From a virus (taxonomy: Duplodnaviria; Heunggongvirae; Uroviricota; Caudoviricetes), in IMG/VR virus record IMGVR_UViG_2563366827_000005: DNA of 33,965 nucleotides; one strand, 5' to 3'. The notes beneath the pieces were generated by a model, which did no database searches, had not been told where the DNA came from, and saw only the letters and a program-made list of their open reading frames with translations. Of this stretch, positions 1,507 to 33,490 are shown piece by piece (within the stretch, counting starts at the first letter, position 1; every line of letters begins with the position of its first letter). Position numbers and translations under genes: made by a program.

Positions 1507-1534
1507 AATCTCCCTTACACGGGCTTATTTTTTA
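1507..1534. other. Prophage attachment site core (attR, ogr-proximal); 28-bp perfect direct repeat of 33463..33490
   Basis: aatctcccttacacgggcttatttttta occurs identically at both prophage ends; its reverse complement matches the P2 att core AAAAAATAAGCCCGTGTAAGGGAGATT as I recall it. Confidence 0.8.
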
Positions 1535-1603
1535 CGCGTAATTCAATGAAATAAAAGGATTTATTTCTGGTCACGTCCACACATTGACCACATCGACAAA
1601 AAA

Positions 1604-1621
1604 GCCCCTCGACTGAGGGGC
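1604..1621. terminator. Hairpin gcccctc-gact-gaggggc with T-rich flanks on both strands; likely bidirectional terminator downstream of ogr and of yegQ
   Basis: Perfect 7-bp stem and 4-nt loop; followed by ctttctgttt on + strand and by TTTTTTG on - strand; sits 14 bp beyond the ogr stop. Confidence 0.6.
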
Positions 1622-1634
1622 TTTCTGTTTGTAA

Positions 1635-1853
1635 TTACATCCACATAATTTGCTGCCCTGACGGTAACGGGTGCGGCCTTACGGCGTGGACTTCTCCCGG
1701 CTTTACGATGTATCGCTGTACCGACTCATAAGTGATGAACGTGGCGCTGCAATTCACGTTCTGGCACTGGTGATAACGCTCTTTTGTCGTGTCAGTGATA
1801 TAGCGACTTGTACGCGCATGTGCGGCATGCTGGCATAAAGGACAATGAAACAT
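1635..1853 (-). CDS. ogr: Ogr, zinc-finger late-gene transcriptional activator
   Basis: 72-aa product MFHCPLCQHAAHARTSRYITDTTKERYHQCQNVNCSATF... with CxxC...CxxxxC motif; ORF-track start at 1916 trimmed to the internal ATG at 1853 to match P2 Ogr length. Confidence 0.9.
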   Translation of the reverse strand: MFHCPLCQHAAHARTSRYITDTTKERYHQCQNVNCSATFITYESVQRYIVKPGEVHAVRPHPLPSGQQIMWM

Positions 1854-1934
1854 CGCGAGCACCTCTTCCGGTTTTGTTGATGGTGCCATTTTAGTTAATT
1901 TACCCTTATAAAACAAACAGATAAATAAACCGCA

Positions 1935-3098
1935 TCACTCATCATCTTCTGTTTCGTACTCCACATCAGAAAGCCTTACCTCAAGCTCCAAGGACGTCGT
2001 GAAGCCGCTATTATTGAGACAATGTGTCACCTTAGTGATGGTCCAGTCCTGCTCGTCTATGACGCGCTTAAAGCCTGACACTTTAACCGGTGTTTCCGTG
2101 TAAATATCTGCCCGACCAGTAGCCAGGCTGATGGAGAACTCCGCAACACCCCGTTGCAGTTTATCCCACTTCGCCTGAGCGGCGCGCATGGCCTGTGCTT
2201 TCGTGGCATATACCGTGGTCAGGGCAAAAACGTTGTCAGCCTCACCGGCCATGTATTCACCTTCGCGCGCTTCCGGTACTTTTGGCTCTTTCTTCTGCGT
2301 GACCGGTTTCGCTTTCGGGTGCTCCAGTGCGCGCAGGTGTTTCTCTTTCTTTTTGCGTTTCAGTTTTACCTTCTGCTTTTGCGGCTTCGGGTCTTTGGTG
2401 TGTAACCACTTTGCCGTAACGCCGGTATAGGCTCCACGGTCAGCAATCGCAAAATGATGACGGTCGCCGTCGCTGCGGGTGATGGTGACCTGCGGGATTT
2501 TTTTACCGCTGGCCGTCACCCCCTGCCCCGCTTTGAGAAACAACAGTTTTCCCATTTTTACCGACACCTCACCGCCGTTGCGTTCTGCAAGACGGGTCAG
2601 GAATTTCGCATCAGACTCCTGCGACTGGTCGATGTGCGGGATTTTAATTCCGGCCAGTGACGGAGCGACACTGGCCTCCAGCTTGTTACGGGAGGCTATC
2701 GCCTCAACAATCGCACCGAGTGTGGTGTCATGCCAGGAGCCTTCCCGGCGGGAATTGAGCGTCCCGCGAAAATCTGCACTCCGGGCGCGGATGGTGACCA
2801 CATCCGGTGCGCCCCGGTGTTCAACCTCATCAACGGTAAATTTCCCTTTGCATACCAGGGCAAAACCTTTCCAGCCGATATACACCGTCAGGACAGCGCC
2901 ACGAATCGGTAGTCCGACCTGCCCGTCGGCATCGTTCAGTTCAATATCAAGCTGGTCAGCCTCAAAGCCCCGGTTATCCGTCAGGGTCATGCTCATCAGA
3001 CGGTCGCTGATATTGCCGGTAATATCCCTGCTGTCGAGCATCAACATATAATCCGGCGTCAGCGTACTGCCTGCATCAAATGTCAGCGCATCCAGCAT
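1935..3098 (-). CDS. D: Tail protein D (late control gene D homolog)
   Basis: 387 aa, same length and position as P2 gpD, last gene of the F-E-T-U-D tail operon; ATG overlaps the U stop (TAATG). Confidence 0.85.
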   Translation of the reverse strand: MLDALTFDAGSTLTPDYMLMLDSRDITGNISDRLMSMTLTDNRGFEADQLDIELNDADGQVGLPIRGAVLTVYIGWKGFALVCKGKFTVDEVEHRGAPDVVTIRARSADFRGTLNSRREGSWHDTTLGAIVEAIASRNKLEASVAPSLAGIKIPHIDQSQESDAKFLTRLAERNGGEVSVKMGKLLFLKAGQGVTASGKKIPQVTITRSDGDRHHFAIADRGAYTGVTAKWLHTKDPKPQKQKVKLKRKKKEKHLRALEHPKAKPVTQKKEPKVPEAREGEYMAGEADNVFALTTVYATKAQAMRAAQAKWDKLQRGVAEFSISLATGRADIYTETPVKVSGFKRVIDEQDWTITKVTHCLNNSGFTTSLELEVRLSDVEYETEDDE

Positions 3099-3577
3099 TA
3101 TCCCACCCCCGTCATACCCGTGAATTTAGTCGCCATACTGCCAGCCTTACCGATGAGCGACTCCGCCTGTTTACCGATATCGCCATAAAGCGCGGCCAGT
3201 GATTCATCAACGCGGGTGAGCGACAGCGTAAAATCAATTTTCCGGGGTGTGCCGTCTGCAAAGAAAATACTCCCTGTTTCACTCACCCTGCTGATGACAT
3301 ACATGCCGTAAATCATGCCGGTGCCATCCAGCAATGGCCACGCCCGACCTTCCTCTGCCATCAGCCTGAGCGTGGTCATCGTCAGCTTGCCGCCGGTCAG
3401 TTCGGGATAAAGCACACCGGCCAGCGTGATGTTTTCCTCACCCACACCGAGAAACTGAAAGGCATCCCGTTTGCCGATACGGGAATTTGACGGCCAGCGA
3501 TAATCTGATTCACGCTGCATGGTCTGGTGTGGCAGCGTCTGGCGCATAAAAACAAACATACCTAACGCGAGCATCAT
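3098..3577 (-). CDS. U: Tail protein U
   Basis: 159 aa starting MMLALGMFVF, P2 gpU length and synteny. Confidence 0.85.
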   Translation of the reverse strand: MMLALGMFVFMRQTLPHQTMQRESDYRWPSNSRIGKRDAFQFLGVGEENITLAGVLYPELTGGKLTMTTLRLMAEEGRAWPLLDGTGMIYGMYVISRVSETGSIFFADGTPRKIDFTLSLTRVDESLAALYGDIGKQAESLIGKAGSMATKFTGMTGVG

Positions 3578-3591
3578 TTTTCGTCACCTCC

Positions 3592-6039
3592 TTAACCGTC
3601 ATGCATCATGCTGGCACGGGCGCGCGCACGTTTATCCCGCTCGTATTTTTCGAGCGCATCCTGTAACTGGCGGTCAAGCGGTGTCCCCGGCGCAGTACCG
3701 CCCGTCAGGCTGATGTGATATTCGTTTTTACTCTGGTCCACATAAGAGCGGCCAGCCGGTGCCGTGACCGGCTGATAAGCCTGATAACCTGCATAAGAGC
3801 TGGTCGCCGGAATATAACCACCGCTGCCATACGTGGCGGCTTGAGTTCTGGCGGCGGTCTGGTCAAGTGTGCCTGACTCTTTGTTGATGACGCCGAGTTT
3901 TTCCAGTACCCAGTCAATACCGCCGCGCAGTTTGTTGAACGCATTAAGCGGCAGCATCAGCGCGTCAGCCAGTGCCTGCCCGAACATGACGCCCGTGTCA
4001 CGGCAACGGTTCAGGGTGTCCTGGGTGGCTTTGACCGGGGCAATCAGGTTTTTAAACCACTGCCACGCGGCCTGTAACTTTTCACCCAGCCAGTCAAACA
4101 CCGGCTTAAGTGGCGTGAACAGTTCCCCCACTGGCGCAAATGCTGCTTTCAGCCCTTCAACCACACCGCCAAAGAATGCGCTGACAGGCTCCCAGTATTT
4201 ACGGATAAGCAACGCCCCGGCGACAATGGCGGCCACCACAGCCACAACCGGCCAGCTAATCGCCCCGATGGCCGTCATAACAGCACTGCCAACCGTCGTG
4301 AAGATTGCCCCCATTGCGCCTGCTGCCGCGATGATGGCATTAATGCCGGTGATAACCGGCCAGGCTACAAGACCAATTGCACCGATGATGCCAATAAGCG
4401 CCAGTGCGCCACCGACAATAAGGCCGATGGTTGACGCCAGTGATTTGTTTTTCTGGATCCAGCCGTCGAGTTTTAACACATACTTTGTGGCCGTCTGCGT
4501 GAGATTACGCAGTGCGCCTTCCTGCTGGTCAAACAGGTCAGTCCCCACCGCCTCATAAGCAGACTGAAACTCCTTAAAGTCACCGCCTAGGTTGTCCTGC
4601 ATGATATTTACCAGCTCGGCGGTCTTCCCGTCTGAGGCTTTAAACGCAGCGGTCAGTTTGTCCAGCTTTCCGGTTGAGGCGGCAGTCATCAGCACGGCGG
4701 CGGCTGAGCTGGCCTCCTCCCCGAAAATAGTTTTCATGTATTCAGCCTGCTGGGCAGTACCGAGCCGGTTTTTCTCAAAACTGGCCTGCATTTCTTTCAG
4801 AATGGTAAATATTGGCCGGGTGTTTCCCTTGCTGTCTGAGGTTTTCACTCCAAGCTCTTTGAGTGCATCCCATGCTTTTCCCGTCGGTGCCTGCAGGCGG
4901 CTTAACACGGCACGGCTTCCCGTCCCCGCCATTGAGCCTGTGATTTTTGCATCATGCAGCGCCCCGACCATTGCGGCGGTTTCTTCAATGCTGACACCGG
5001 CATTTTTTGCCACAGGTGCGGCATAGGTCAGCGCATCGCTCATGCCGTCAAAATCGGCGGCGGTTTTGTTCATCGTCATGGAGAGAACATCCCCGATATG
5101 AGCGACCTTATCGTTTGAAAGCTGAAAGGCGGATTTCATCCCCATCAGCAGGGCGGCGTTTTCTTCCATCGTGCGGCGGTTCGCCAGCGCCATATTCAGC
5201 GTGACCGGCGTTGCCGCCTGAATGGCATCAACATCCCCACCCGCTTTCGCGATGATTATCTGTGCACCGGCCGCATCATCCGCCGAGGCGGCGGTATTGT
5301 CGCCGAGCTGGCGCGCCTGTTTGCGTAGTGCGGTCATTTCGGCGGAGTCTTTTGCCACTCCGAGCACGGCCTGCAATTCTGAGTTTTTCTGCGCAAACTC
5401 ATAACCGGGCATCAGCAACTTAACTCCGGCCATCGTTCCCGCCGCCGCAATCCCCACACCGGCAGCGCCTACTGAGGCCATATTTCCGGCCAGTTCCTTT
5501 CCGGCCTGATAACGCTGTTTGACTGCGTTAAGTTTTGCCTGTTGCGCACTGACACGCGCCAGCGCGTCGCGCTGACGGTTAAGCTGTGCGGTGGTTTCAC
5601 TGATACGGTTTTTCAGTCCCTGCTCATCATGTGCAAGATTGCGGGTATTAATTCCCACAGCGGCCAGTTCCCGCTGCTGGCGTTTAACGGAATCCGTCAG
5701 GCGGTTATATTTCGCCTGTAAGTCCTCCGCCGCTCGCTTTGCGGATTCCAGCACTTTCGCCTGAGCACTGGTCGGACGTTCGGTGTTTTTAAACTGTGTG
5801 GCAAGGGCTTCGGCTTCCTGCCGTGCCTTTTCAAGTGCATGACCAGTCACGGCGAGCTGCGCACTGGTCTTGCGAAATCCCTCAATACGGGATGCGTGAC
5901 CGTTCAGCTCGCGCAGTGATTTTTGTGTTTCCCGGATATCCCCCGACAGCGACTTGCTCACTGTGCGGATGGATTTAAACGGGCGGGATGCCTGGTCAAC
6001 AGCCCTGAGCAATACCTGTAATTTTACATTGTTACTCAT
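3592..6039 (-). CDS. T: Tail tape measure protein T
   Basis: 815 aa, Ala/Gly-rich with hydrophobic central segment, coiled-coil N-terminus; P2 gpT length and position. Confidence 0.9.
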   Translation of the reverse strand: MSNNVKLQVLLRAVDQASRPFKSIRTVSKSLSGDIRETQKSLRELNGHASRIEGFRKTSAQLAVTGHALEKARQEAEALATQFKNTERPTSAQAKVLESAKRAAEDLQAKYNRLTDSVKRQQRELAAVGINTRNLAHDEQGLKNRISETTAQLNRQRDALARVSAQQAKLNAVKQRYQAGKELAGNMASVGAAGVGIAAAGTMAGVKLLMPGYEFAQKNSELQAVLGVAKDSAEMTALRKQARQLGDNTAASADDAAGAQIIIAKAGGDVDAIQAATPVTLNMALANRRTMEENAALLMGMKSAFQLSNDKVAHIGDVLSMTMNKTAADFDGMSDALTYAAPVAKNAGVSIEETAAMVGALHDAKITGSMAGTGSRAVLSRLQAPTGKAWDALKELGVKTSDSKGNTRPIFTILKEMQASFEKNRLGTAQQAEYMKTIFGEEASSAAAVLMTAASTGKLDKLTAAFKASDGKTAELVNIMQDNLGGDFKEFQSAYEAVGTDLFDQQEGALRNLTQTATKYVLKLDGWIQKNKSLASTIGLIVGGALALIGIIGAIGLVAWPVITGINAIIAAAGAMGAIFTTVGSAVMTAIGAISWPVVAVVAAIVAGALLIRKYWEPVSAFFGGVVEGLKAAFAPVGELFTPLKPVFDWLGEKLQAAWQWFKNLIAPVKATQDTLNRCRDTGVMFGQALADALMLPLNAFNKLRGGIDWVLEKLGVINKESGTLDQTAARTQAATYGSGGYIPATSSYAGYQAYQPVTAPAGRSYVDQSKNEYHISLTGGTAPGTPLDRQLQDALEKYERDKRARARASMMHDG

Positions 6040-6459
6040 TCGTGTTTCCGCTTCGCCGGAGCGCCTTTTCGCGCCATGTGATGAGTTCGGTCAGGCTCAT
6101 GGGATACAGTTCTGATGGCGGCCAGTGAAATATCACTGCCACATCCGCCATCAGGTCATCGACCGAGAGATTTTTCGGAAACGTCACTGCACCGAGTTCG
6201 GCGACAAAAAACCAACCACCTTACCGGCCAGCGCCACAAGGTCAGGCAGTTCCAGCGCGGCGACTTCCTGCTCGGTCAGCATCGGTGCCGTCATGCGCGG
6301 CAGCACTTTAATCAGTGCATCGACTTCGGAGTTCGCGACTGCAGCCAGACTGACACCGCGCAGCGTCCCGGCATTGGGTTTCATCAGCGTGACCTGTTCG
6401 ATAACCTGCTCACCACGTTTGACCGGATTGTCCAAGGTAATGACGTTTTCTTTGTTCAT
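6032..6459 (-). CDS. Tail assembly chaperone E+E' fusion produced by programmed -1 ribosomal frameshift
   Basis: Hand translation of the -1 frame from the slip site gives ...GFF-VAELGAVTFPKNLSVDDLMADVAVIFHWPPSELYPMSLTELITWREKALRRSGNTNE-stop, total 142 aa, ending at TAA 6032..6034 and overlapping the T start by 8 nt. Confidence 0.75.
6184..6459 (-). CDS. E: Tail assembly chaperone E (in-frame product)
   Basis: 91 aa ending ...KVVGFLSPNSVQ; slippery TTTTTTG lies near its 3' end; P2 gpE length. Confidence 0.85.
   Translation of the reverse strand: MNKENVITLDNPVKRGEQVIEQVTLMKPNAGTLRGVSLAAVANSEVDALIKVLPRMTAPMLTEQEVAALELPDLVALAGKVVGFLSPNSVQ
6205..6211 (-). promoter_or_regulatory. Slippery heptamer T-TTT-TTG (minus strand) for the E/E' -1 frameshift
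   Basis: caaaaaa on + strand equals TTTTTTG on the coding strand, in the GGT-TTT-TTG (G-F-L) context near the end of E. Confidence 0.75.
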
Positions 6460-6515
6460 GGTTTTCTCACTTCTGAATCGGGGTTAACCGGTCAGCCAGG
6501 CTGACCGGATGAAAA

Positions 6516-7034
6516 TCACAGGCCGATATTGCGGCGGTGTTGCTCCAGCCGGTCGACGCCGTTCACCTTCTCAATCATGTTGATGGTGTCGATTTCGACC
6601 AGCTCCTTACCGTCCATCGTCAGCCGGAAATAGGTGCAGACCACGGAGATTTTCGACTCGGTGTCTTCTCCCTGTTTGCCCTCGCCGGTGTCGATTTCTT
6701 TCTGACGTCCACGCATGACCACCTCGACGGCCACCGTTTCGCCGGTATCGTCGCGCTGGTAAGAGCCTGCAAAACGAATCGGTACGGCATCCACACCGGT
6801 TGCGGCGTAAAGCTCCCAGATAACCGAATCCGGGAAACCACCGAGCGACCACTCCATTGACAGCGCATCGTCATCAAGGCCGAGGTCTACCGGTGCGCTG
6901 CCGTTCATCCCCGCACCGCGATAGTTTTCGAGCTTACGGGTCAGTTTTGGCAGCGTGACGGACTTTGCAACGCCCTGATAGCTGTAGCCGTTCAGAAAGA
7001 CGTTCATTAACTTGAGTTTGCGCGGCATTGCCAT
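6516..7034 (-). CDS. FII: Tail tube protein FII
   Basis: 172 aa, P2 gpFII length and synteny. Confidence 0.85.
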   Translation of the reverse strand: MAMPRKLKLMNVFLNGYSYQGVAKSVTLPKLTRKLENYRGAGMNGSAPVDLGLDDDALSMEWSLGGFPDSVIWELYAATGVDAVPIRFAGSYQRDDTGETVAVEVVMRGRQKEIDTGEGKQGEDTESKISVVCTYFRLTMDGKELVEIDTINMIEKVNGVDRLEQHRRNIGL

Positions 7035-7046
7035 CGGTCAGGCTCC

Positions 7047-8237
7047 TTAATTGCTATTAACCGAAGTGACCAGACTTGCCAGGTATCTGGAAGTAATACG
7101 CTGGCGCAGGGTCAGGTTTTCGAGAGGAGGCACCGGGGTATAGTCGTAGTCGATATACAGTTTTCCGGCCTTGAGGGTTTCCGCATCGTTGGATTCTTCG
7201 CTGAACCAGCAGGTCGCATCCACGATATAGCCGTTTGTTTTCAGCTCACGGAATTTGGCATTGATGCCGTCAACGATGTCGCGAATCAGCGTTGCGGTGA
7301 TGGGCTTGTCCACCGCCCACATGTGCGCCTCAGCCATCGTATCGGCCAGCACCTGCGCGGTGCGGGTGTAGTTTTCAAAGAGGAACAGCGGGTCATCAGA
7401 GCAGGTACGGTTACCCCAGAAGCGTAAACCGTCACGGCGAATCAGCGTTGTGACCCCTGACTCGTTCAACAGGTCAGCATCGGTGCCGGACTCCTGCAAA
7501 TCCCAGAATACAGATGCGCTGATGCCGGTAACACCGTTCACCCCGACATTGGACAGAGTTTTATGCCAGCCCTGCTCCTGGTCGATTTTAGCGCGCAGGC
7601 CCAGTGCACGGGCAGTGGCATACGCGGTGGCGGTGGTACTGGTGACCGTATCCCATGCGAGGAAATCCGGCCAGATGACCATCAGCTCACGCTGGCTGAA
7701 ATTCTGGCGGTAGGCTTTCACCTCGGAAATAGTCTTACATCCCCATGCGCTGATATACCCGAAAGCACGCAGCTTCTGACAGACAGATGCCAGTGCAACA
7801 GCCACCTCTTTGGTATCCAGTCCCGGCACGCCGAGAATACGCGGTTTAACACCGGTTACCGACTCCGCCGCCAGCAGGGCTTTCAGTCCGGTGTACTGAC
7901 CGTTTTCGTCGGTGGTGCCGATGATATTGGAAACGGTCTGCGCGAGTTTCGTTTCTTCGTCGTCGCCGGTGCCGTCTTCCACACGTACGACAACGGTGAC
8001 CGGTTTTGACTGGTCGGCGATGGCCTGCAACGATGCCGCCAGCGTGCCTTTTTTACCAGCCTTTGCAATTGCGCTCTGCACATTGGTAATCAGCACCGGT
8101 TTATTGAGGGGGAAGGTTTCCGCATCTGCATCGCTGGCCGTGCAGACCATGCCGACAATGGCCGTGGATACGGTGGAAATGACGCGGGTGCCGTCGTTAA
8201 TCTCCAGCACCTGCACGCCGTGATGATAGTCACTCAT
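7047..8237 (-). CDS. FI: Contractile tail sheath protein FI
   Basis: 396 aa, P2 gpFI length and synteny, first gene of the F-E-T-U-D operon. Confidence 0.9.
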   Translation of the reverse strand: MSDYHHGVQVLEINDGTRVISTVSTAIVGMVCTASDADAETFPLNKPVLITNVQSAIAKAGKKGTLAASLQAIADQSKPVTVVVRVEDGTGDDEETKLAQTVSNIIGTTDENGQYTGLKALLAAESVTGVKPRILGVPGLDTKEVAVALASVCQKLRAFGYISAWGCKTISEVKAYRQNFSQRELMVIWPDFLAWDTVTSTTATAYATARALGLRAKIDQEQGWHKTLSNVGVNGVTGISASVFWDLQESGTDADLLNESGVTTLIRRDGLRFWGNRTCSDDPLFLFENYTRTAQVLADTMAEAHMWAVDKPITATLIRDIVDGINAKFRELKTNGYIVDATCWFSEESNDAETLKAGKLYIDYDYTPVPPLENLTLRQRITSRYLASLVTSVNSN

Positions 8238-8680
8238 CCGTTTAACTCCGTGGTTAATGGGTGCAACTATTTTCTGTTGTGCAGAGCATGAGACGCTATT
8301 TGACCTGGCTGGTCAGGGGATGAAACAACAGATAAAGAAAATGCGGGCAATTCGCCCGCCTGTCCTGATTTGTACACACTCATTTTCCGACTGACTATTT
8401 AGATAGCCGAAACGCTATCAAATCTGACAGTCTGCTTTGAGCGAGGAGCAAAGGTTAGACCAGACTTATCTTTAGGGATGTTTTCTACCCTCATGTTGAC
8501 GTTATTTTTAAGCGATAAATCTATTGTTATGGAGCTGATTATATTTTCAGACACTAATTTGGATTACTTCATATTAATCTGGCCGATATATGAAAGGATC
8601 TATTACAGCCAGATTTAGGATAAGTTTATGCTCTTCCTATATAATTTTAAGTATCAGCTTTAGATTCTGCTGCACCCGCA

Positions 8681-9166
8681 TTACCAACCTCGCTCTTTAA
8701 GCCTTTGCTGCACATGTGATGCTGTCATTTTTAGAATATCAGGTAGAATAATTTCATTACCTTGAGAAGGTTGAAACGAGGCATTACGATTGGCAAAGAG
8801 GTCATGAAACCTAGTGTCTGATGTAATCATGACGGGAAGATTGTTATATCCCCGGTCGTTGAACTGATCTGCAGTCAAATCAACAATCATTCCATCCACG
8901 ACAAGCCAAGCATGTGAATTACCGTTTGAAAGACCGCTGGCGGGGGACTTATGATCAGATTCATAGTAATATCCTGCGAGTACTTCAGAGACTATCCCGA
9001 ATTGCTGATAAAGCAAATAAGCAAGCAGTTTCGATGTATCCCCGCAGCATCCCACTGGAAAGTTCGAATTTCTAAAGGATGACAGCCGTGAATGATCTTT
9101 TTTGGTCATCTTCTCAAGTGCTTCACGCACATCAACACAAAAAATTTTTAACTCATCTTGATTCAT
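8681..9166 (-). CDS. Cargo gene 2: small protein with transglutaminase-like (papain-fold) Cys-His-Asp signature; function unknown, candidate effector
   Basis: 161 aa; motifs VGCCGDTSKLLAYLL (Cys40/41 at a helix start), NSHAWLVVDG (His85) and IVDLTAD (Asp) match the TGL-superfamily pattern GxCxx[FY]A ... HAWxEV ... D[PA]T; AT-rich; ATG with AAGGT Shine-Dalgarno. Confidence 0.45.
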   Translation of the reverse strand: MNQDELKIFCVDVREALEKMTKKDHSRLSSFRNSNFPVGCCGDTSKLLAYLLYQQFGIVSEVLAGYYYESDHKSPASGLSNGNSHAWLVVDGMIVDLTADQFNDRGYNNLPVMITSDTRFHDLFANRNASFQPSQGNEIILPDILKMTASHVQQRLKERGW

Positions 9167-9252
9167 CTAGTTACCTTTTATTGTCTACACAACCATAGAA
9201 TTAAATTTAATTGGCCCGTAATGCACTATCATTTAACTACTAAATAGAAAAG

Positions 9253-10896: not shown

Positions 10897-10899
10897 AAA

Positions 10900-14339: not shown

Positions 14340-14343
14340 GGTT

Positions 14344-19600: not shown

Positions 19601-19603
19601 CGG

Positions 19604-25073: not shown

Positions 25074-27290
25074 ATGGAACTTAGATTAAAAAATGTTACC
25101 AGTTATAAGAAAGACGCCTTCACAATACTGAATCTTGAAAAAAGAGTAAACATACTATACGGCCAAAATGGTTGTGGCAAATCTACCATTTCAAATTATT
25201 TCTACGACTCTACACACACAGATTATAACGAGTGTGAATGTACCCTTCTTGACAATTACAAACCTCTTGTTTACAACACTAAATTTATTGAAGATAATTT
25301 CTACAATGCACAGGAACAAAAAGGTGTTTTTACATTAAGTAAAGAAAATGCAGATATTGAAAAACAATTAATTGAAAAAGAAGCAATTAAACAGCAACTT
25401 ACAGAGCAATATAGACAAAAAAAAGGAGTGTTATTGAAATTAGAAGCAGAAATGGAAAAAAAAGAAAATGAATACATCGAATCGATCTGGAAAAAAACAG
25501 AACCAATCAGAAACTCTGTACTAAAAACCTTAATGAAAGGTAAAGTTGGCTATAAAAGACCTTTTTTTGAGATGATAAAATCATCCTCACCAATCACCTT
25601 TATTAATTTAAATGATATAGCAAAAGAATACTCTATACTATTAGAAAATAGAAACAATGAAACCGCATTAATAACTCCTTTACATCCATATACCCCATCA
25701 ATTGATGATGTAAATACATTAGCAACACCTATAATAGATACAAGCAATAGCTATTTATCAGAAACCATTAATAAACTTCATAATCTTGACTGGGTAAAAA
25801 AAGGTAAAGAACATTATTTAGACGGTTCTACATGTCCGTTTTGTCAGGAAAAAACTATTAGTCACGAATTTTTAAATGCCCTTAAATCAATATTTGACGA
25901 AAGTTATTCAAAGAAAGTAAAACAGCTCTCAGATATAAAGTCAGTTTATGAGAAAAATACCATATATCATTTTAACGAAATACAAAACAATATATCATCA
26001 TGTGCACTAATCAATGAGAAAGATAAAGAGATCATTATTTCCAATATTAAAATATTGCAAAACATTGCAGAAAAAAATTTAATAAACATTATTGATAAGA
26101 TCAACAATCCATCAACATGCGTTACATTAGAAATTGATAAAGAACTAGAAAATCATGTTCAGGAAAGCATAGACGCTGTTAACAAAAAAATAAGAGACAT
26201 AAATGATAAGGTTAAAAAACTCAAAGAGTATGAGAATAAAATCGGAAAACAAGTTTGGGGGGCTCTCCATGCTTTTTGCAGCGATGATTTAGAGAATTTA
26301 TCCAAACACAAAGAAAAATTCTTTGATATCAAAAAGAAAGTTCATGATGAATTAAATAATATTGAGCAACAAGGAAAAGAAAATAATCTCACAATAAAAG
26401 CATTGCGAGATAAAATATCTAACATTGATTCTACGATAGACTCAATAAACACCCATTTAAAAAATCTAGGGATCTCTGGTTTTTGTATTGAAAAACATGC
26501 AGAAAGAAAAGATATGTACATTATATCTCGACCAGGGCATACAAAAAACCAAAATGTTTATAGATCTCTTAGCGAAGGTGAAAAAACACTAATAACGTTT
26601 CTTTATTTTTTAGAGTGCTGTAAAGGTAAAACCGATAAAAATGATACCGATAGCAGGGATATTTTTATTGTTATTGACGATCCAATATCTAGTCTATCGC
26701 AAAACTATGTCTACGACATCGCATCAATTATTCATCACCACATTATAAAAAATGAATCAACAAAGAAGGTATTAATCCTTACTCACAATCTTTATTTCTT
26801 TCATGAACTTATTAAGCTATCTCCTAAAAGCAGAGAAGACAAACTATTTAAGAAAAACTATTATCTAGGTAGAGTAACGAAAAATGATTTTAGTATAATT
26901 ACTGAAATACAAAAAAACAGCATACAGAATGAATATCAATCTTTGTGGCAAATATTAAAAGATGCAAAAGATGGCAAAGCAAACAAAATCATAATACCTA
27001 ATATTATGAGAAACATACTAGAATATTATTTTGCATTTGTTCATAGAACAGATGCTCTACAAGATGAATTAACAAAGTTGGCACGCGACGATAGCAACAG
27101 TGATTTCAAAGCATTCTACAGATACATTAACAGAGGTTCTCACTCTGATGCGGTAAATATTACTGATATGGGCGACATAGACCCAGATAAATACCTAAAA
27201 CAATTGAGAACAATATTTTCAGCTACTGGTGACGAAATGCATTATTTAAAAATGATGGACGAACTAGAAGAGGAGAACGTTACCGCTTAG
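25074..27290 (+). CDS. Cargo gene: ABC/Rad50-like ATPase with long coiled-coil insert (CxxC) and C-terminal PrrC/RloC-like putative anticodon-nuclease domain; candidate single-gene anti-phage protein
   Basis: 738 aa; Walker A GQNGCGKST (aa 30-38), about 460-aa Lys/Glu-rich insert with CPFC (aa 254-257), ABC signature LSEGEK (aa 499-504), Walker B IFIVIDD (530-536), D-loop SSLS, H-loop LILTHN, C-terminal RNILE (646-650) and RYINRGSH (683-690); no Toprim motifs; strongly AT-rich; occupies the tin/old position. Confidence 0.55.
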   Translation: MELRLKNVTSYKKDAFTILNLEKRVNILYGQNGCGKSTISNYFYDSTHTDYNECECTLLDNYKPLVYNTKFIEDNFYNAQEQKGVFTLSKENADIEKQLIEKEAIKQQLTEQYRQKKGVLLKLEAEMEKKENEYIESIWKKTEPIRNSVLKTLMKGKVGYKRPFFEMIKSSSPITFINLNDIAKEYSILLENRNNETALITPLHPYTPSIDDVNTLATPIIDTSNSYLSETINKLHNLDWVKKGKEHYLDGSTCPFCQEKTISHEFLNALKSIFDESYSKKVKQLSDIKSVYEKNTIYHFNEIQNNISSCALINEKDKEIIISNIKILQNIAEKNLINIIDKINNPSTCVTLEIDKELENHVQESIDAVNKKIRDINDKVKKLKEYENKIGKQVWGALHAFCSDDLENLSKHKEKFFDIKKKVHDELNNIEQQGKENNLTIKALRDKISNIDSTIDSINTHLKNLGISGFCIEKHAERKDMYIISRPGHTKNQNVYRSLSEGEKTLITFLYFLECCKGKTDKNDTDSRDIFIVIDDPISSLSQNYVYDIASIIHHHIIKNESTKKVLILTHNLYFFHELIKLSPKSREDKLFKKNYYLGRVTKNDFSIITEIQKNSIQNEYQSLWQILKDAKDGKANKIIIPNIMRNILEYYFAFVHRTDALQDELTKLARDDSNSDFKAFYRYINRGSHSDAVNITDMGDIDPDKYLKQLRTIFSATGDEMHYLKMMDELEEENVTA

Positions 27291-27318
27291 GCCGCATATT
27301 ATCGTTTTGGGTAAGAAC

Positions 27319-27338
27319 GACGGTGCTTACGCACCGTC
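27319..27338. terminator. Hairpin gacggtgc-ttac-gcaccgtc between the convergent cargo gene and A; candidate terminator
   Basis: Perfect 8-bp stem with 4-nt loop in the convergent intergenic region; flanking U-tracts are weak. Confidence 0.3.
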
Positions 27339-27539
27339 TCCCAACGCCCAAAGCGGTAGCGGTTGTACTGGCGTACATTCACTAGCTTTAACATGAGGCA
27401 ATCTCCATGCCAGCACTATTGTTGCCAATAGCAGCCTTTATACCCTTTGTACAAAGCTAATACCAAGAGTAATGCAAAGTAGATGTCCCAAGCGGTAACG
27501 GGGCTATTCTATGTCAAACACAGAAAAAATCAAAGCACC

Positions 27540-29804
27540 CTATGAATCCCCCCAACCATCAGCGACCGGATACGTGAATTTTTTCCCGTCATAATTTACG
27601 GTCGCTCCACGCGCCAGCGCCTCAAGCTCCCATCGCTGCGGCCTGATACCGTTCTGAGCAAGGTCAACGCGGATACGGGTGATTTGCAATCGTTCAGACC
27701 TGGTCAGTCTGGCAGATGGTGCAATTTCATGCGGTTTTAACGGGCTTCCGTTTCTTTGCTGACGGTTTGGCGTTCTCAGGTCGTATTTTAATGCGCCCCT
27801 GAGCGCCCTCACGACCTCCGGTTCATTCCATTCAATAACACCGTCATCAACCAGATTAAGCACTGCTGCGGCGTGCTCAGAAGGTGTGGGAGCCGGTAAC
27901 GAAGTATCACCACCGGTGAGCTTTCCACAGTTATTGACAGGACTCCGAGGCGCGGCGATGCCGCTTTTTAAAGTCAAAGGCTCAACGACCGGAACTTTCG
28001 GAACAATGCGCCAGTCCGTCGTTCTGGTGATATGAATATGACGCGCGCCGAGATGCGGCGCGTAAATGCCGACCACTCTCTCGACTTCTTCCTCGTACTC
28101 GTTAACTTCATCCGACGGACTACGGGCAACCCTGACAGTCTGACAATCGCGCGGAACATTTGCCCCACCCTGCGCGCTGATATACAACGCAAAATCACCA
28201 CTGTCTGCGGCGGCGCGTGCAGCCTCGACGCGTTCGTCAAACTCATCAGCAATGCTGACGCCGCGAGGCAATTTGCGTAGTTCACGGTAAGCGCCCATTG
28301 TCGGCAGGCCAACCGTTTTAAATTGCGGGATACGCCACGTTGACGCCCATGCGGTAACAGCCGCTGCAGTGTCTTTCAGCGGCCTGCCGGTATCGTTATC
28401 GAGCTGACCATCCAGTGCATAGCCGTCGATATTTTTTGAGATGTATTTTGCGATATATCCCGCAGCACCGCCCCGGTTAAGGTGTTTTGCCTGAAAACGG
28501 TTTCGCGCGGCTCCTCTTTCGTTACCATCCTCTTTGAGCGCATAGCGACGCATGATTTCGATAATCTGGTTACGCTGGCGTGGATTACAAAAAAGCATCA
28601 TATGCCAGTGCGGCGTTCCGTCGTGGTGTGGCTCGACGACACGCAAACCGTAGACCTGTAAATCATTATCCTTGAATGCCGTGCGCATCAGGCTCCAGAT
28701 ACGGCAGAGATAACGCTGCGCATCCTTCGGATTAAATGCCTCATCGTTCCAGCCGTGATTAAGCTGGACGGTTTTACTTTCTCCTTTTCCGACCTGACGT
28801 GTCGGGTGATACTTTGACGGCGTGGTCAGCGTGATAAACATCCCCACATCACCCTCTGCGGCGGCGTAACGCTCAATACCGGCAATGGTGTTCATCAGCT
28901 CCATCCGGCGAATTTCAGGATTAGAAATACTGCCCATCACCTTACTGATAAGGTCGATGCGCTCGCCGGTTTCCCTGTTTTCAAGGTCACATGATTTAAG
29001 AAACTCCAGATTTGCCTGGCGGCGCGCACGCACATCACGAATGGCATGTTTACTGGCATAAGGAGAACGGTCTTTATTGACCTCCCCGACAGCAATCAGT
29101 AACGCCTCATGCCAGCGCATGCGCTGGCCTTTAAGCTGATGAGTCCACCACTCATCGTTAAACAGACGGGCAATGGCAGAATATGCCTGCCTCGTGGTCA
29201 TCTGTCCTTTACGGTATTTTTTCCAGTAGAGAGGGGAAATATTGAAAGCTCGTGCAGCGCCAGCAACATGACCATACAGGTGATCCTGAGCCTCATCCGT
29301 AAACAGTGATTCTTTTTCGCCATGCGCATCCACCCAGGCATCGCTGAGTTCCTCATACATCATGAAAAGCTGCGATGAGATACGGGCGGCAAACTTTTTC
29401 AGCTCCTTGTCATTCATTCCCGGCAGGCGCGCATAGTGGTCACGCTCTGCCAGAAACAGCAACGACGCGTCGGTGTTCATTTCATGGCGCTGATTCACAC
29501 GCTCAATGCGCGGCCATAAACGACGCTGAAAAGTGGATGTGAGGAAATAAAACCCGTGTACCGGGCTTTTATTGCGCCTGATGTAGTCATAGCGTGAAGT
29601 AAACAGCGAGCGCAAAAAGTAAGGCAGGCGGTTAATCGTGGATAAAACACCTTGCACCTGACACATCTCATCACGTGTAAGAGGTCTTTCGCGCCCGACA
29701 GCCTCGCGTGGCGCGTTCCATGCATAAGCACCGGTAAACATCTTACCGGTGCCTGCGGCAAATGCTGACGGAGGGACAAAACGCCCGGAGGCTTTAACGG
29801 CCAT
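27540..29804 (-). CDS. A: Replication initiation protein A (rolling-circle nickase)
   Basis: P2 gpA homolog by length and position; ATG at 29804 (MAVKASGRF...) chosen; the ORF-track start at 29846 is a TTG and an in-frame GTG at about 29825 would give 761 aa, so the exact start is uncertain. Confidence 0.85.
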   Translation of the reverse strand: MAVKASGRFVPPSAFAAGTGKMFTGAYAWNAPREAVGRERPLTRDEMCQVQGVLSTINRLPYFLRSLFTSRYDYIRRNKSPVHGFYFLTSTFQRRLWPRIERVNQRHEMNTDASLLFLAERDHYARLPGMNDKELKKFAARISSQLFMMYEELSDAWVDAHGEKESLFTDEAQDHLYGHVAGAARAFNISPLYWKKYRKGQMTTRQAYSAIARLFNDEWWTHQLKGQRMRWHEALLIAVGEVNKDRSPYASKHAIRDVRARRQANLEFLKSCDLENRETGERIDLISKVMGSISNPEIRRMELMNTIAGIERYAAAEGDVGMFITLTTPSKYHPTRQVGKGESKTVQLNHGWNDEAFNPKDAQRYLCRIWSLMRTAFKDNDLQVYGLRVVEPHHDGTPHWHMMLFCNPRQRNQIIEIMRRYALKEDGNERGAARNRFQAKHLNRGGAAGYIAKYISKNIDGYALDGQLDNDTGRPLKDTAAAVTAWASTWRIPQFKTVGLPTMGAYRELRKLPRGVSIADEFDERVEAARAAADSGDFALYISAQGGANVPRDCQTVRVARSPSDEVNEYEEEVERVVGIYAPHLGARHIHITRTTDWRIVPKVPVVEPLTLKSGIAAPRSPVNNCGKLTGGDTSLPAPTPSEHAAAVLNLVDDGVIEWNEPEVVRALRGALKYDLRTPNRQQRNGSPLKPHEIAPSARLTRSERLQITRIRVDLAQNGIRPQRWELEALARGATVNYDGKKFTYPVADGWGDS

Positions 29805-30069
29805 ATGAGCCAAAAGCCTCTGAACAACGCCTGCTGAGTTGCTCAACCTGCGCGTTTAAATCAGCAAAAGACTTTGCGCTTCCGGTCAGAATATCGTGAT
29901 GCATCAGGCCGGAAACGAGCTGGCTTAATTTCGGGTAATAACCAACCACCGCCAGCCATTCCTGACCGGCGTTTTTACCGCTTTCCGCTCTCTTTTTCTC
30001 GTGGAGAATAAACTGAAAGCTGTCACTGGTAACGACATAACGTTCGCCAATTTCAATACGAATACTCAT
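29794..30069 (-). CDS. Hypothetical protein (P2 orf83-like) upstream of A
   Basis: 91-aa ORF with ATG start in the B-A interval of the early operon. Confidence 0.55.
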   Translation of the reverse strand: MSIRIEIGERYVVTSDSFQFILHEKKRAESGKNAGQEWLAVVGYYPKLSQLVSGLMHHDILTGSAKSFADLNAQVEQLSRRCSEAFGSYGR

Positions 30070-30290
30070 GCCGTTCTCCGGTAATGTTTGTTTTTTGCTT
30101 CAAAGACTGACTGACAGGAAACACAACGCGTGGCTGACGGGTAAGCCGCACGACGGGCAGCAGGTATTGGCGCGTCACACTCTTCGCAAACCAGCGCAGA
30201 AGCACCGCAATGTTTTACCCTTGCCGCGTTAATCTGGCGCTCCAGTAATTCAGCCTGTTGTTCCTGAATAAAATCTACGTTGTCCGGCAT
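30066..30290 (-). CDS. TraR/DksA-family C4 zinc-finger protein (P2 orf82-like)
   Basis: 74 aa with CxxC...CxxC spacing (CEECDAPIP...CVSCQ) typical of TraR/DksA-like phage proteins. Confidence 0.65.
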   Translation of the reverse strand: MPDNVDFIQEQQAELLERQINAARVKHCGASALVCEECDAPIPAARRAAYPSATRCVSCQSVFEAKNKHYRRTA

Positions 30291-30292
30291 TA

Positions 30293-30592
30293 TCAGCTCC
30301 TTTTATCGTTAAGTTTCCTGGATACATCAGCGCAATAACTGGCAAGCTCTGTCGTTAATTTTGTCAGTTCATCCACTGAGGAAATTTGCTTGTGGAATAC
30401 AGCGCGTTTAACAAGTAAATTGACCACATCAGACAGGAGGTTTAATTCATTCTGATAAATCGCGATAACAGATTCAGTTATGTCGCGTTTTTCTTTATCA
30501 AGGCAAAGTTGAATAAGAGACAAATCGCCATTTTTCATAACGGCGATTTTTAAGGCGTTATTCAGTAATACAACTGAATGAGAACAGGACAT
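30293..30592 (-). CDS. Hypothetical protein (P2 orf81-like)
   Basis: 99 aa from ATG 30592, which overlaps the upstream stop (ATGA); the ORF-track first codon is a TTG. Confidence 0.5.
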   Translation of the reverse strand: MSCSHSVVLLNNALKIAVMKNGDLSLIQLCLDKEKRDITESVIAIYQNELNLLSDVVNLLVKRAVFHKQISSVDELTKLTTELASYCADVSRKLNDKRS

Positions 30593-30816
30593 CAAAGCAC
30601 CTCCCCGCGAGACAATCCGATATTGTGAAATTTTTCCGACTCCTGACTGAGCAGCTCGACTATCTCCACGCGGGATAACTCCGCCTTTGTGATATGGCGA
30701 ATCATGGCGTCAAGATGAGAAGAAAAGCGTGTCGCTGCGTCGGCCTGTGCTTCGGTTCTGGCCTGTTGCAGCAGTAATGCGTATTTACCGCACTGATTTT
30801 CAGAAACTGTATGCAT
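30592..30816 (-). CDS. Hypothetical protein (P2 orf80-like)
   Basis: 74 aa from ATG 30816 with GGAGAAAG SD; the ORF-track start at 30849 is a TTG. Confidence 0.5.
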
Positions 30817-30879
30817 GACTTTCTCCAGGCAAAAAGAAGCCCCGCACAATTAAGTGCGTTAAAAACTCTGGTTAATTAC

Positions 30880-31380
30880 TTAATGCAGATATTGCTCTGG
30901 TTTTACCGACGTCAGAATTGTCGGTGCATACTCAAACAGGCTGAACAATTCACGTAATGCACGGAATAAAGCATCACGCCAGTAACATGATTCTTCATTA
31001 ATTCGCCAGTATGGCTGGTTGAATTCTTTTTCAGTCAATCCGGCATGCATAAATAAAGTACGACGCTGACTGACTGTTAAAAAACTAATATATGCATACT
31101 CACTTGCGCCAACCTGACGGCGTTTTGAGAATGCCCCACGCAATTCATCAATTGCGCAAACCAGCCGTTCACGTTCGACGTCGTTCATTTCTTCAAAACG
31201 CATCGTTGCGTGACGCTGTTTTAACTGCGCATGGAAGCAAACCGTTAGCCGTTCGCGTTCCATCATCTGATTATAATAATCGCATGTCTCCTGCCAGCGA
31301 GGGACGGCCAGATGCTTACCAATTATCCGGCGCATAGCTGCTGGCTGTTTTTCAACGAGATTGAGCGTCATCACTGTCAT
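30880..31380 (-). CDS. B: Replication protein B (DnaB helicase-interacting)
   Basis: 166 aa, P2 gpB length and position after cox. Confidence 0.8.
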   Translation of the reverse strand: MTVMTLNLVEKQPAAMRRIIGKHLAVPRWQETCDYYNQMMERERLTVCFHAQLKQRHATMRFEEMNDVERERLVCAIDELRGAFSKRRQVGASEYAYISFLTVSQRRTLFMHAGLTEKEFNQPYWRINEESCYWRDALFRALRELFSLFEYAPTILTSVKPEQYLH

Positions 31381-31547
31381 TTCCAGACCCTCCGGCTTTT
31401 CAGAAAGGTCAGAGCCTTTTTTAACGGACTCTGTTTTTTGGTGCGGATAATGATTCCCTTACGCCCCTTACCGTGGGTGATGGTGAAGTCAATCGCCCTG
31501 GGGCTTTCGTTACGCAATAACTGAGCAATACAACGAGGCTCATTCAT
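31377..31547 (-). CDS. Small hypothetical protein (P2 orf78-like) between cox and B
   Basis: 56 aa from ATG 31547 with AAGGAG SD; the ORF-track start at 31571 is a GTG. Confidence 0.5.
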   Translation of the reverse strand: MNEPRCIAQLLRNESPRAIDFTITHGKGRKGIIIRTKKQSPLKKALTFLKSRRVWK

Positions 31548-31557
31548 ACGGTTCTCC

Positions 31558-31833
31558 TTAACGTGGTTCACCGAGACCTAACCACATCAACCAGCCGTCA
31601 CGAATCTCTTTAGGACGGCTTTCATAAGCCAGTTTTAGTCCGTTATTCCATGCCGGAAGGTATACCCAATATTCACCAGCACGCCCCGATACTGACTGAG
31701 GGTCAGTAATCTCAATAACTGGTAATTTCCCTTTCTCAATCATGCCCCTTACAGCTCTTGGAGTTTTGCCAATGAGTTTTGCAAACTCCTGATAAGGCAC
31801 GGCATCAGTCACGCTTACAAGCTGTCTATTCAT
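31558..31833 (-). CDS. cox: Cox, repressor of Pc and excision directionality factor
   Basis: 91 aa; C-terminal ...SGRAGEYWVYLPAWNNGLKLAYESRPKEIRDGWLMWLGLGEPR matches P2 Cox as I recall it. Confidence 0.85.
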   Translation of the reverse strand: MNRQLVSVTDAVPYQEFAKLIGKTPRAVRGMIEKGKLPVIEITDPQSVSGRAGEYWVYLPAWNNGLKLAYESRPKEIRDGWLMWLGLGEPR

Positions 31834-31954
31834 CTGCTACGATTCTCCCTTAGTGCTTCTAATGGCTCCTAATGGCTAATTATTGCCTAAAAGGATAACT
31901 CCAGAAGCACAACATTTCATACCATCAGCAAGAAATTACGCAATCGGAGTAATT
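31834..31954. promoter_or_regulatory. Lysis-lysogeny switch region between cox and C (Pe/Pc promoters and operator); contains direct repeats ctaatggct x2
   Basis: Position between divergent cox and C; 9-bp direct repeat at 31859..31867 and 31869..31877 with 10-bp periodicity, consistent with a direct-repeat operator of a P2-type C repressor. Confidence 0.5.
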
Positions 31955-32254
31955 ATGTCAATAGACGTTTCGGAGAAGTTGAAGCTAATCCGTGAATCTG
32001 AAAGGTTAAACCGTAAAGAATTCAGTGAATTAACTGGTGTAGCCTACAGCTCACTTTCGAGCTATGAGAGCCGGTCAAAAAACGCTGGAGTTGAAGCCAT
32101 AATGAAGGTCTTACAACATCCTAGATTTACTAAATATACTTTGTGGTTCATGACTGATCAGGTAGCTCCAGAAGCCGGGCAAATTGCGCCCGCTCTCGCA
32201 CACTTTGGGCAAAACGAAACAACGTCGCCCCACTCCGGTCAAAAGACTGGTTAA
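31955..32254 (+). CDS. C: Immunity repressor C
   Basis: 99 aa from ATG 31955 (GGAG SD); C-terminal ...TKYTLWFMTDQVAPEAGQIAPALAHFGQNETTSPHSGQKTG resembles P2 C; the ORF-track N-terminal extension was rejected. Confidence 0.8.
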   Translation: MSIDVSEKLKLIRESERLNRKEFSELTGVAYSSLSSYESRSKNAGVEAIMKVLQHPRFTKYTLWFMTDQVAPEAGQIAPALAHFGQNETTSPHSGQKTG

Positions 32255-32369
32255 CAATTTATCGTGAATATATTCATCACAAGTGCCTACTATTGGTGGC
32301 TAAATTTCAGCCACCACGAAAAAAGCGATTAGTAGTAGCAAAAAAAAGTACCACTCGGAGGGTTTTCTG

Positions 32370-33383
32370 ATGGCAATCAAAAAACTCGATGATGGTCGAT
32401 ATGAAGTGGACATCCGCCCTACTGGACGTAACGGAAAACGCATCCGTAGGAAGTTTGATAAGAAAAGCGAAGCTGTCGCTTTCGAAAAATACACGTTGTA
32501 CAACCACCACAATAAAGAATGGCTATCAAAACCAACAGACAAACGACGTCTGTCGGAACTGACACAGATCTGGTGGGATTTAAAGGGTAAACACGAAGAG
32601 CATGGGAAATCTAATCTTGGAAAAATTGAAATCTTCACAAAAATAACGAATGACCCATGCGCATTTCAAATCACGAAATCCCTTATCAGCCAGTACTGCG
32701 CCACCCGAAGAAGTCAGGGTATTAAACCTTCGAGTATCAATCGTGATTTAACATGTATTAGCGGCATGTTTACAGCCCTGATTGAAGCGGAGTTATTCTT
32801 TGGTGAGCACCCTATCAGAGGGACAAAGAGGCTTAAGGAGGAAAAACCAGAAACAGGCTATCTCACACAGGAAGAAATTGCCTTACTGCTTGCAGCACTT
32901 GACGGCGACAATAAAAAGATTGCGATTCTTTGCCTGAGTACAGGAGCACGTTGGGGAGAAGCAGCTCGTTTGAAAGCAGAAAATATCATCCATAACCGCG
33001 TCACATTTGTTAAAACGAAAACAAACAAACCACGCACCGTCCCGATCTCAGAGGCTGTTGCCAAAATGATCGCGGATAACAAACGAGGTTTTTTATTCCC
33101 TGATGCTGATTACCCTCGCTTCAGACGAACAATGAAAGCAATAAAACCGGATTTGCCAACGGGGCAAGCCACACATGCACTAAGGCACAGCTTTGCCACT
33201 CATTTCATGATTAATGGAGGAAGTATTATCACGCTACAACGGATACTAGGTCACACGCGGATTGAGCAAACTATGGTTTACGCTCATTTTGCGCCAGAGT
33301 ACCTTCAGGACGCCATTTCTCTTAATCCGCTAAGAGGTGGTACTGAGGCCGAGAGTGTCCACACAGTGTCCACAGTAGAGTAA
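32370..33383 (+). CDS. int: Tyrosine integrase
   Basis: 337 aa; C-terminal catalytic region ...HALRHSFATHFMINGGSIITLQRILGHTRIEQTMVYAHF (R...HxxR...Y); P2 Int length; adjacent to the att core. Confidence 0.9.
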   Translation: MAIKKLDDGRYEVDIRPTGRNGKRIRRKFDKKSEAVAFEKYTLYNHHNKEWLSKPTDKRRLSELTQIWWDLKGKHEEHGKSNLGKIEIFTKITNDPCAFQITKSLISQYCATRRSQGIKPSSINRDLTCISGMFTALIEAELFFGEHPIRGTKRLKEEKPETGYLTQEEIALLLAALDGDNKKIAILCLSTGARWGEAARLKAENIIHNRVTFVKTKTNKPRTVPISEAVAKMIADNKRGFLFPDADYPRFRRTMKAIKPDLPTGQATHALRHSFATHFMINGGSIITLQRILGHTRIEQTMVYAHFAPEYLQDAISLNPLRGGTEAESVHTVSTVE

Positions 33384-33462
33384 CGTTTAAGGGCTTTCAG
33401 TGGTAATTTATGCCGCTCAAACCCGCATTGTACCGTTGAAAGCCCCTACTGGTGACACCCTA

Positions 33463-33490
33463 AATCTCCCTTACACGGGCTTATTTTTTA
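33463..33490. other. Prophage attachment site core (attL, int-proximal); direct repeat of 1507..1534
   Basis: Identical 28-bp sequence 80 bp beyond the int stop. Confidence 0.8.

Follow-up and report, generated by a model that had tools for sequence, protein, structure and literature searches.

We analyzed a 33,965-nt stretch of viral DNA (IMG/VR record IMGVR_UViG_2563366827_000005; hereafter the window) and conclude that it very probably contains a complete temperate Peduovirus (P2 subgroup), which measures 31,956 bp from core to core and is integrated in an Escherichia coli chromosome. The element has the collinear backbone, the essential gene set, the cos and ori sites, the P2-type C/Cox switch, and the integrase (Int) and att sites that define this group. 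A first-pass annotation, made from the letters of the window, had proposed an intact P2-like prophage between yegQ and yegR, bounded by a perfect 28-bp repeat. The analysis agrees with this proposal, in that the repeat is exact and the essential genes are intact.

The entire backbone showed 96–98% nucleotide identity by megablast to P2 (NC_001895) and to many isolated Peduovirus phages, and in 48 phage records the coverage of window positions 1507–25000 reached at least 80%. A tblastn search with all 42 annotated P2 proteins gave full-length, ungapped matches for Q, P, O, N, M, L, X, Y, K, lysA, lysB, lysC, R, S, V, W, J, I, G, FI, FII, E, T, U and D, and likewise for ogr, int, C, cox, orf78, B and orf80–83. 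The backbone open reading frames (ORFs) have the same lengths as in P2, and Ogr, P, K, FII, orf78 and orf82 are 100% identical to their P2 counterparts. The E+E′ product of the -1 frameshift was reconstructed as 143 codons, 142 of which are identical to P2. H was matched over its full length but is diverged, and P2 A was matched over residues 1–751 of 761. Gene A of the prophage encodes 754 aa and stops seven residues before P2 A; its C-terminal end differs from P2, and the change coincides exactly with the beginning of the variable region. The check suggested by the first-pass annotation, a comparison with P2 for frameshifts and premature stops in the essential genes, revealed none; all of the approximately 35 backbone genes proved free of frameshifts, stops and truncations, and they show no sign of decay.

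Several sites required in cis were also identified as exact matches to P2, namely the 19-nt cos cohesive end, the ori nick region in A, the E/E′ slippery site (6194–6213), the P and P′ arm sites of Int, and the activator site shared by pO and pP. The similarity of the backbone extends approximately 38 bp past the end of cos, to about position 24796, where prophages with other cargo stop matching as well. Exact-match searches for the P2 integration host factor (IHF) site, the pF and pV activator sites and the O1/O2 operators gave no match. In a hand alignment, pF was partly conserved and the pV region was replaced, yet identical to that of phage D8. The junction between S and V is short and lacks P2 orf30, as is also the case in the isolated phage D8.

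Exactly five blocks differ from P2 (8450–10285, 10955–11907, 15324–15387, 24774–27543 and 31812–32124). The P2 genes orf30, fun(Z), orf91, tin and old had no tblastn match in the window, and other DNA stands in their place. Thus, the claim that all P2 modules are present holds for the essential genes and for the P2-like lengths, but not for these genes. The fun(Z) slot contains a cargo island with genes for a DUF2971 protein and a 161-aa protein, and the old/tin slot contains a second island with a gene for an RloC-like protein. The islands are AT-rich, with a GC content of 0.29–0.45 as compared to 0.55–0.60 in the backbone.

The tail fiber genes are mosaic as well. Gene H includes, in the region 11386–12351, 3.5 tandem copies of a 132-bp repeat (11896–12351), which encodes a 44-aa Phage_fiber_2 unit. 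A central segment of H is absent from both P2 and phage D8, and the 3′ end of H together with G is 95% identical to D8. The mosaic pattern suggests recombinational shuffling of host-range determinants, and since H and G are 49% and 74% identical to P2, respectively, the host range probably differs from that of P2.

The immunity switch is of the P2 type, with a C repressor homologous to P2 C and a Cox protein recognized by the Pfam model Phage_Cox (143.6 bits), rather than of the CI/Apl/CII/Tum type of phage 186. In the tblastn comparison, identity to the P2 counterpart was 64.6% for C and 83.5% for Cox. The spacer between C and cox cannot be aligned with the P2 spacer, as expected for another immunity class, and it retains Cox-box-like direct repeats, with two copies of CTAATGGCT at a spacing of 10 bp. 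C repressors within one P2 immunity class are at least 95% identical (PMC3448106), a level that is not reached here, and judging from this difference the prophage should be heteroimmune to P2 and represent a non-P2 immunity class. An identical C repressor (100%) was found in a single deposited phage record, vB_EcoM-720R8, and the next best matches, at 77.8%, were to Klebsiella phages.

The explanation that competes most seriously with a complete phage is a cryptic or defective P2-like prophage, which looks intact but in which the lytic cycle is blocked by missense changes or by incompatible mosaic parts. Candidates for such incompatibilities are Cox with the Cox sites of attP, C with its operators, and the chimeric H fiber. 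We regard this explanation as unlikely, but several observations speak for it and weigh against a functional phage. Five blocks have been replaced, and both C and Cox are diverged from P2. Several positions in the IHF-site region of attL and in the pF and pV activator sites are not as in P2. Cox itself is only 83.5% identical, while attP has a P2-like Cox-binding region (98%), which bears on their compatibility for excision. Furthermore, the exact cargo combination of the RloC-like gene and the fun(Z)-slot island was found in none of a set of 5,426 complete E. coli genomes, where the best match to the window is 97.6% identical over positions 1–24793. The absence of the combination points to a recent mosaic. 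The intactness has been read from the sequence, and missense defects may be present. As to the cargo, the families PDC-S06 and PDC-S31, to which the two main cargo proteins were assigned, are candidate families in PADLOC, and the defense role of both cargo alleles is predicted.

Against a defective prophage, the approximately 35 backbone genes are free of frameshifts, stops and truncations, and the cos, ori, arm, slippery and pO/pP sites are exact. The same C-cox-int module is present in vB_EcoM-720R8, and the same structural backbone is found in isolated phages. Decay normally leaves pseudogenes, as is seen in K-12. With a switch, late operons, replication genes and packaging functions that all appear to be in working order, a complete prophage should be capable of virion production.

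The first-pass annotation had also stated that the prophage may be inducible, which, if taken to mean induction by the SOS response, is not upheld. The C repressor had a helix-turn-helix match only, and at 99 aa it leaves no room for an S24 peptidase domain, to which it had no match. No Tum-like gene was found in the window, including the region between A and cos. The LexA box CTGT-N8-ACAG is absent from the whole window, where loose CTG-N10-CAG matches occur only inside genes. P2 is reported to be insensitive to SOS and mitomycin C because its C repressor lacks the peptidase motif (PMC2669165). A C repressor without a peptidase domain, together with the lack of Tum and of a LexA box, makes SOS induction unexpected, and the prophage is probably not SOS-inducible. 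An SOS-inducible prophage of the 186 type draws on general P2/186 family membership, with no specific support, and is very improbable given the P2-type switch and the features of C listed above. The prophage would be expected to be released spontaneously at a low level, and a P4-type satellite could perhaps derepress it.

The element is bounded by the 28-bp perfect direct repeat AATCTCCCTTACACGGGCTTATTTTTTA. Exactly two copies were found in the window, and still just two when three mismatches were allowed, as compared to none expected from 100 shuffles. The repeat is the reverse complement of the annotated attP core of P2 (NC_001895, 24356–24382; 27 bp) with one additional base that is identical by coincidence, which supports the earlier suggestion that it represents the P2 att core. 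The insertion point is the terminator of the small RNA (sRNA) gene cyaR, located between yegQ/trhP and yegR, and we take this site to be locI, the preferred P2 site of E. coli C. The cyaR gene scored 100.7 bits against Rfam RF00112 (gathering score 47; model positions 1–85). In the predicted CyaR terminator hairpin, the att core takes in the final two bases of the 5′ arm, the loop and the entire 3′ arm, together with the U-tract. Since the core covers the end of the terminator, integration regenerates cyaR unchanged, just as the 3′ ends of tRNA genes are restored by many phages. A tRNA gene was also considered as the att target and was rejected, as no tRNA gene was found in the window and the target is cyaR.

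The empty site was reconstructed as a 975-bp junction with a single core by joining window positions 1035–1534 and 33491–33965. An uninterrupted match at 100% identity was found in many complete genomes, such as E. coli M8, GE3 and several O104:H4 strains, confirming the single-copy core that the first-pass annotation had proposed to look for at the unoccupied site. A place covering at least 80% of the empty junction is present in 4,565 of the 5,426 genomes. An assembly chimera or a laboratory P2 lysogen instead of a natural prophage can be dismissed, with nothing in its favor, because both junctions run into host DNA that matches the uninterrupted site at 100% in other genomes, the element differs from P2 by 3–4% throughout in addition to the five blocks, and near-identical prophages occupy the same site in other genomes.

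The bacterial side of attR (33491–33550) contains a degenerate version of the P-arm region of P2 Int, with 71% identity over 49 nt between positions 33502–33550 and 1562–1610. The copy includes the exact 15-mer CATTGACCACATCGA and is followed by a 10-nt partial core, AATCTCCCTT, at 33539–33548. The same stretch is found in unoccupied sites and in K-12, and this flank of attB may thus mark an earlier P2-like prophage of which almost everything has been deleted.

A P2-like backbone covering at least 80% of the window from 1 to 24999 was found in 666 of the 5,426 genomes (approximately 12%), in many of them beside yegQ. The chromosome of K-12 MG1655 is collinear with positions 1–2149 of the window, which comprise yegQ, cyaR, attL, ogr and the 3′ end of D, and then resumes at position 33472. 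The remnant that the first-pass annotation had placed here in K-12 is thus found at the same place, and judging from the alignment the “cryptic prophage PR-X” (ogrK, yegZ) looks like the product of a single deletion with one end inside D and the other inside the attR core. The approximately 610 phage-derived bases of the remnant are 95.4% identical to this prophage and 97.0% identical to P2. The remnant is thus closer to P2, suggesting that the prophage is a model of the ancestor and not itself the ancestor; its earlier description as an ancestor-type occupant of the site applies generically, but not to the specific ancestor of the K-12 remnant. The features of the prophage and its flanks are listed in Table 1.

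Table 1. Features of the P2-like prophage and of the flanking host DNA (window positions).
Feature	Position	Strand	Remarks
Host gene yegQ/trhP, left flank outside the prophage	1–1362	+	453-aa ORF; annotated thus in 100%-matching E. coli genomes and in K-12
cyaR sRNA gene	1445–1530	+	Rfam RF00112, full length; terminator loop, 3′ arm and U-tract inside the att core
attL core, copy 1 of the 28-bp repeat	1507–1534	+	
Int P-arm binding site	1569–1596	-	Exact match to P2 24293–24320
ogr, late-gene activator, 72 aa	1635–1853	-	100% identical to P2 Ogr
F operon: D, U, T, E and E+E′, FII, FI (tail sheath, tube, tape measure)	1935–8237	-	97.7–100% aa identity, full length
Cargo island 1, P2 fun(Z) slot	8450–10285		GC approximately 0.33–0.45; no similarity to P2 or D8
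161-aa Cys-His-Asp protein	8681–9166	-	phrog_26734; putative papain/transglutaminase-like fold
DUF2971 / PADLOC PDC-S31 protein, predicted ADP-ribosyltransferase fold	9253–10059	-	Likely start ATG at 10038, giving 261 aa
Tail fiber assembly gene G and mosaic tail fiber gene H (665 aa)	10369–12897	-	G 74% and H 49% identical to P2
Baseplate genes I, J, W, V	12908–15323	-	95–99% aa identity, full length
O operon: S, R, lysC, lysB, lysA, K, Y, X, L, M, N, O	15390–21590	-	P2 orf30 absent between S and V
Ogr activator site common to pO and pP	21670–21700		Exact match to P2 3057–3087
P (large terminase) and Q (portal)	21764–24570	+	P 100% identical to P2
cos, 19-nt cohesive end	24740–24758	-	
RloC-family ABC ATPase / anticodon-nuclease-like protein, 738 aa	25074–27290	+	PADLOC PDC-S06; GC 0.29; in cargo island 2 (24797–27543)
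Early operon: cox, orf78, B, orf80–83, A	27540–31833	-	ori nick site at 27931–27961
Immunity switch: C-cox spacer and C repressor (99 aa)	31834–32254	+	C at 31955–32254
int, 337 aa	32370–33383	+	99.7% identical to P2 Int; P′ arm site at 33349–33375
attR core, copy 2 of the 28-bp repeat	33463–33490	+	
Host gene yegR, right flank	33648–33965	-	ORF list; E. coli genome and K-12 annotation

The RloC-like gene has the same orientation as old and tin in P2, reading away from cos and converging on A. Its product scored 846 bits against PADLOC PDC-S06, 373 bits against Pfam AAA_13 and 1,293 bits against phrog_2801, and the PrrC model matched residues 490–730 with 48 bits. Full-length homologues with 28–33% identity are named wobble nucleotide-excising tRNase, and homologues in Streptococcus prophages are annotated as “translation-disabling ACNase”. 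An RloC protein is defined by an ABC ATPase head that is split by a zinc-hook insert, in combination with an Arg-x3-Glu-x36-52-His motif in which the His is often preceded by Ser (PMC2610378). In an alignment of 12 diverse homologues, the Walker A motif (G30–K36), the CxxC motif (C254-P-F-C257), the signature motif LSEGE (499–503), D535-D536 and H571 were invariant. The CxxC motif sits in an insert of approximately 460 aa between Walker A and the signature motif. R646 and E650 were invariant, H690 was nearly so and is preceded by S689, giving a spacing of R-x3-E-x39-S-H. By its ATPase motifs, zinc-hook insert and R-E-H triad, the 738-aa protein belongs to the RloC family. A search of the PDB sequences with the protein gave no match, and NCBIfam yielded no informative match for any of the three proteins encoded by the cargo.

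The RloC-like allele is present in 44 of the 5,426 complete E. coli genomes. It was found in no deposited E. coli phage, and the nearest phage copy, in the Enterobacter phage ENT4, is 64.8% identical. The curated systems of the P2 gpA-gpQ hotspot include “AAA_13 ... RloC-like” (row “5 / AAA_13 / 420”; Rousset et al., PMC9122126 supplement), and this kind of cargo has thus already been catalogued. In several complete E. coli genomes, the RloC-like island was located at record coordinates of approximately 2260–5235, at the start of the chromosome record, which is probably a quirk of assembly rotation or start position.

The DUF2971 protein of the fun(Z) slot scored 156 bits against PDC-S31 and 25.0 bits against Pfam PF11185, where the cut-off is 22. 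Its best structural matches were to Tpt1 and DarT, and both a conserved Tyr and an ExE motif are present in it. In a survey from 2025, DUF2971 was placed in the HYE clade beside DarT, with a conserved Tyr in motif II and ExE in motif III (PMC12522546). Aristaios, a single-gene DUF2971 protein encoded by a Lactococcus plasmid, has been shown to be an abortive-infection system (PMC11381338). In agreement with the survey and with Aristaios, the protein is predicted to adopt an ADP-ribosyltransferase (ART) fold. A literature search for “PDC-S31” gave no match.

The 161-aa protein has invariant residues C39/C40, S83-H84 and D95/D99 in its family alignment, and its AF2 model has a pLDDT of 90.9. Foldseek gave no match to the model in the PDB at E ≤ 0.001, the best match being at E = 0.047. 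Nearly all of the weak matches were to papain/transglutaminase-like Cys-His enzymes (SseI, protein glutaminase, vasohibins, NATs and cathepsin B), and some RefSeq records label the family “transglutaminase-like”. Based on the common theme of the weak matches, the invariant Cys, His and Asp residues, and the RefSeq labels, we tentatively describe the modeled protein as papain/transglutaminase-like.

The fun(Z)-slot island is present in 12 of the 5,426 complete genomes, and in none of these does the same prophage carry the RloC-like island. In Serratia, the genes for the DUF2971 and 161-aa proteins lie side by side, but the DUF2971 gene stands alone at the end of a Providencia prophage, and the 161-aa family is found alone in lambdoid prophages of Citrobacter. 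An obligate linkage of the two genes was therefore rejected, and they were treated as separable morons rather than as one obligate system. A DarTG toxin-antitoxin system was likewise rejected, since the neighboring 161-aa protein had no macrodomain match in Pfam, NCBIfam or PADLOC and its weak fold matches were to Cys-His enzymes. A new two-component defense module distinct from DarTG and Aristaios, with the DUF2971 ART as the effector and the 161-aa protein as a regulator or second effector, seems doubtful to us. If true, such a module would, together with the phage-borne RloC, give a defense repertoire directed against tRNA and against DNA or protein.

In Serratia quinivorans (6001–12400), the DUF2971 and 161-aa pair is located beside an integrase gene and a split Phage_GPA replication gene, outside a P2-like tail module, suggesting that the cassette moves between different mobile elements. 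In the prophage, both genes have the same direction as the flanking tail operons, unlike fun(Z) in P2. The sole terminator-like site in the region 8343–10368 is at 8343–8359 on the minus strand, just before the FI promoter region. There is none between G and the cassette, and late read-through transcription of the cargo is thus possible.

A working model can be outlined for the prophage. By analogy with P2, the P2-type tyrosine integrase would have recombined the attP core with the identical attB core in the cyaR terminator, which would have duplicated the core and left cyaR unchanged. Lysogeny would be held by the P2-type C repressor of a non-P2 immunity class. The lytic cycle would depend on the Cox/C switch, the Ogr-activated late operons, rolling-circle replication by A and B from the ori in A, and packaging at cos, with virions made spontaneously or after derepression in trans and not via the SOS response. 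Upon infection by a foreign phage, the RloC-like protein in the old/tin slot would be predicted to cleave tRNAs in their anticodon loops and to halt translation. As suggested by the RloC literature, its ATPase and zinc-hook region would sense a signal linked to DNA damage or infection, after which the nuclease would act. The DUF2971 protein with its putative ART fold would be of the same kind as the Aristaios abortive-infection protein, and may have a defense activity.

Every component of the element is of a known kind, including the P2-like phage itself, the att core, the defense hotspots, the RloC-like genes and the DUF2971/Aristaios-like ARTs, and what is individual is the particular mosaic. 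The element stands out only in its rare immunity repressor, its mosaic tail fiber and two candidate anti-phage cassettes that have been swapped in. The main value of the analysis is therefore in the annotation of what is very probably a complete P2-family prophage at what we take to be the preferred site, with both junctions, the empty site and an apparent deletion derivative in K-12. The prophage illustrates that P2-like phages have a near-invariant backbone in which anti-phage cargo is swapped at fixed hotspots (Rousset et al. 2022). It also illustrates that the terminator of an sRNA gene can serve as an att site, like the 3′ ends of tRNA genes. The RloC-like allele and the DUF2971 and 161-aa alleles are reasonable candidates for defense screens; the families have already been catalogued and the current understanding is unchanged.

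Compared with P2 (NC_001895), the prophage has the same gene order, all essential genes, the 27-bp att core, the Int arms, the cos ends, the ori nick and the E/E′ slippery site. It differs in that old, tin, orf91, fun(Z) and orf30 are lacking and that the RloC-like, DUF2971 and 161-aa genes are present instead, and it is smaller, at 31,956 bp versus 33,593 bp. The Escherichia phage vB_EcoM-720R8 (ON470606), the record of which includes yegR-yegS flanking DNA, has the same integration site, an identical C repressor and a region from A to int that is 97.7% identical. Its gpQ-gpA hotspot contains different cargo, with several small hypothetical genes and no RloC-like gene. PR-X of K-12 has the same site, orientation and attL, but keeps only approximately 0.6 kb, consisting of ogr and the 3′ end of D.

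Among the cargo proteins, the RloC-like protein resembles RloC of Geobacillus kaustophilus (PMC2610378) in the ATPase head split by a CxxC-hook insert and in the triad, here R-x3-E-x39-(S)H. Both genes stand alone and are not linked to a type I restriction-modification locus. The protein of the prophage is shorter (738 aa versus 804 aa) and is phage-borne in the P2 old/tin hotspot, and its named RloC-type relatives are only approximately 28–33% identical. The DUF2971 protein shares with Aristaios and DarT the DUF2971 domain, the predicted ART fold, and the conserved Tyr and ExE motif, with the likeness to Aristaios being at the family level. In DarT systems the partner is the macrodomain protein DarG, whereas the neighbor in the prophage is the 161-aa Cys-His-Asp protein, which is also found alone elsewhere.

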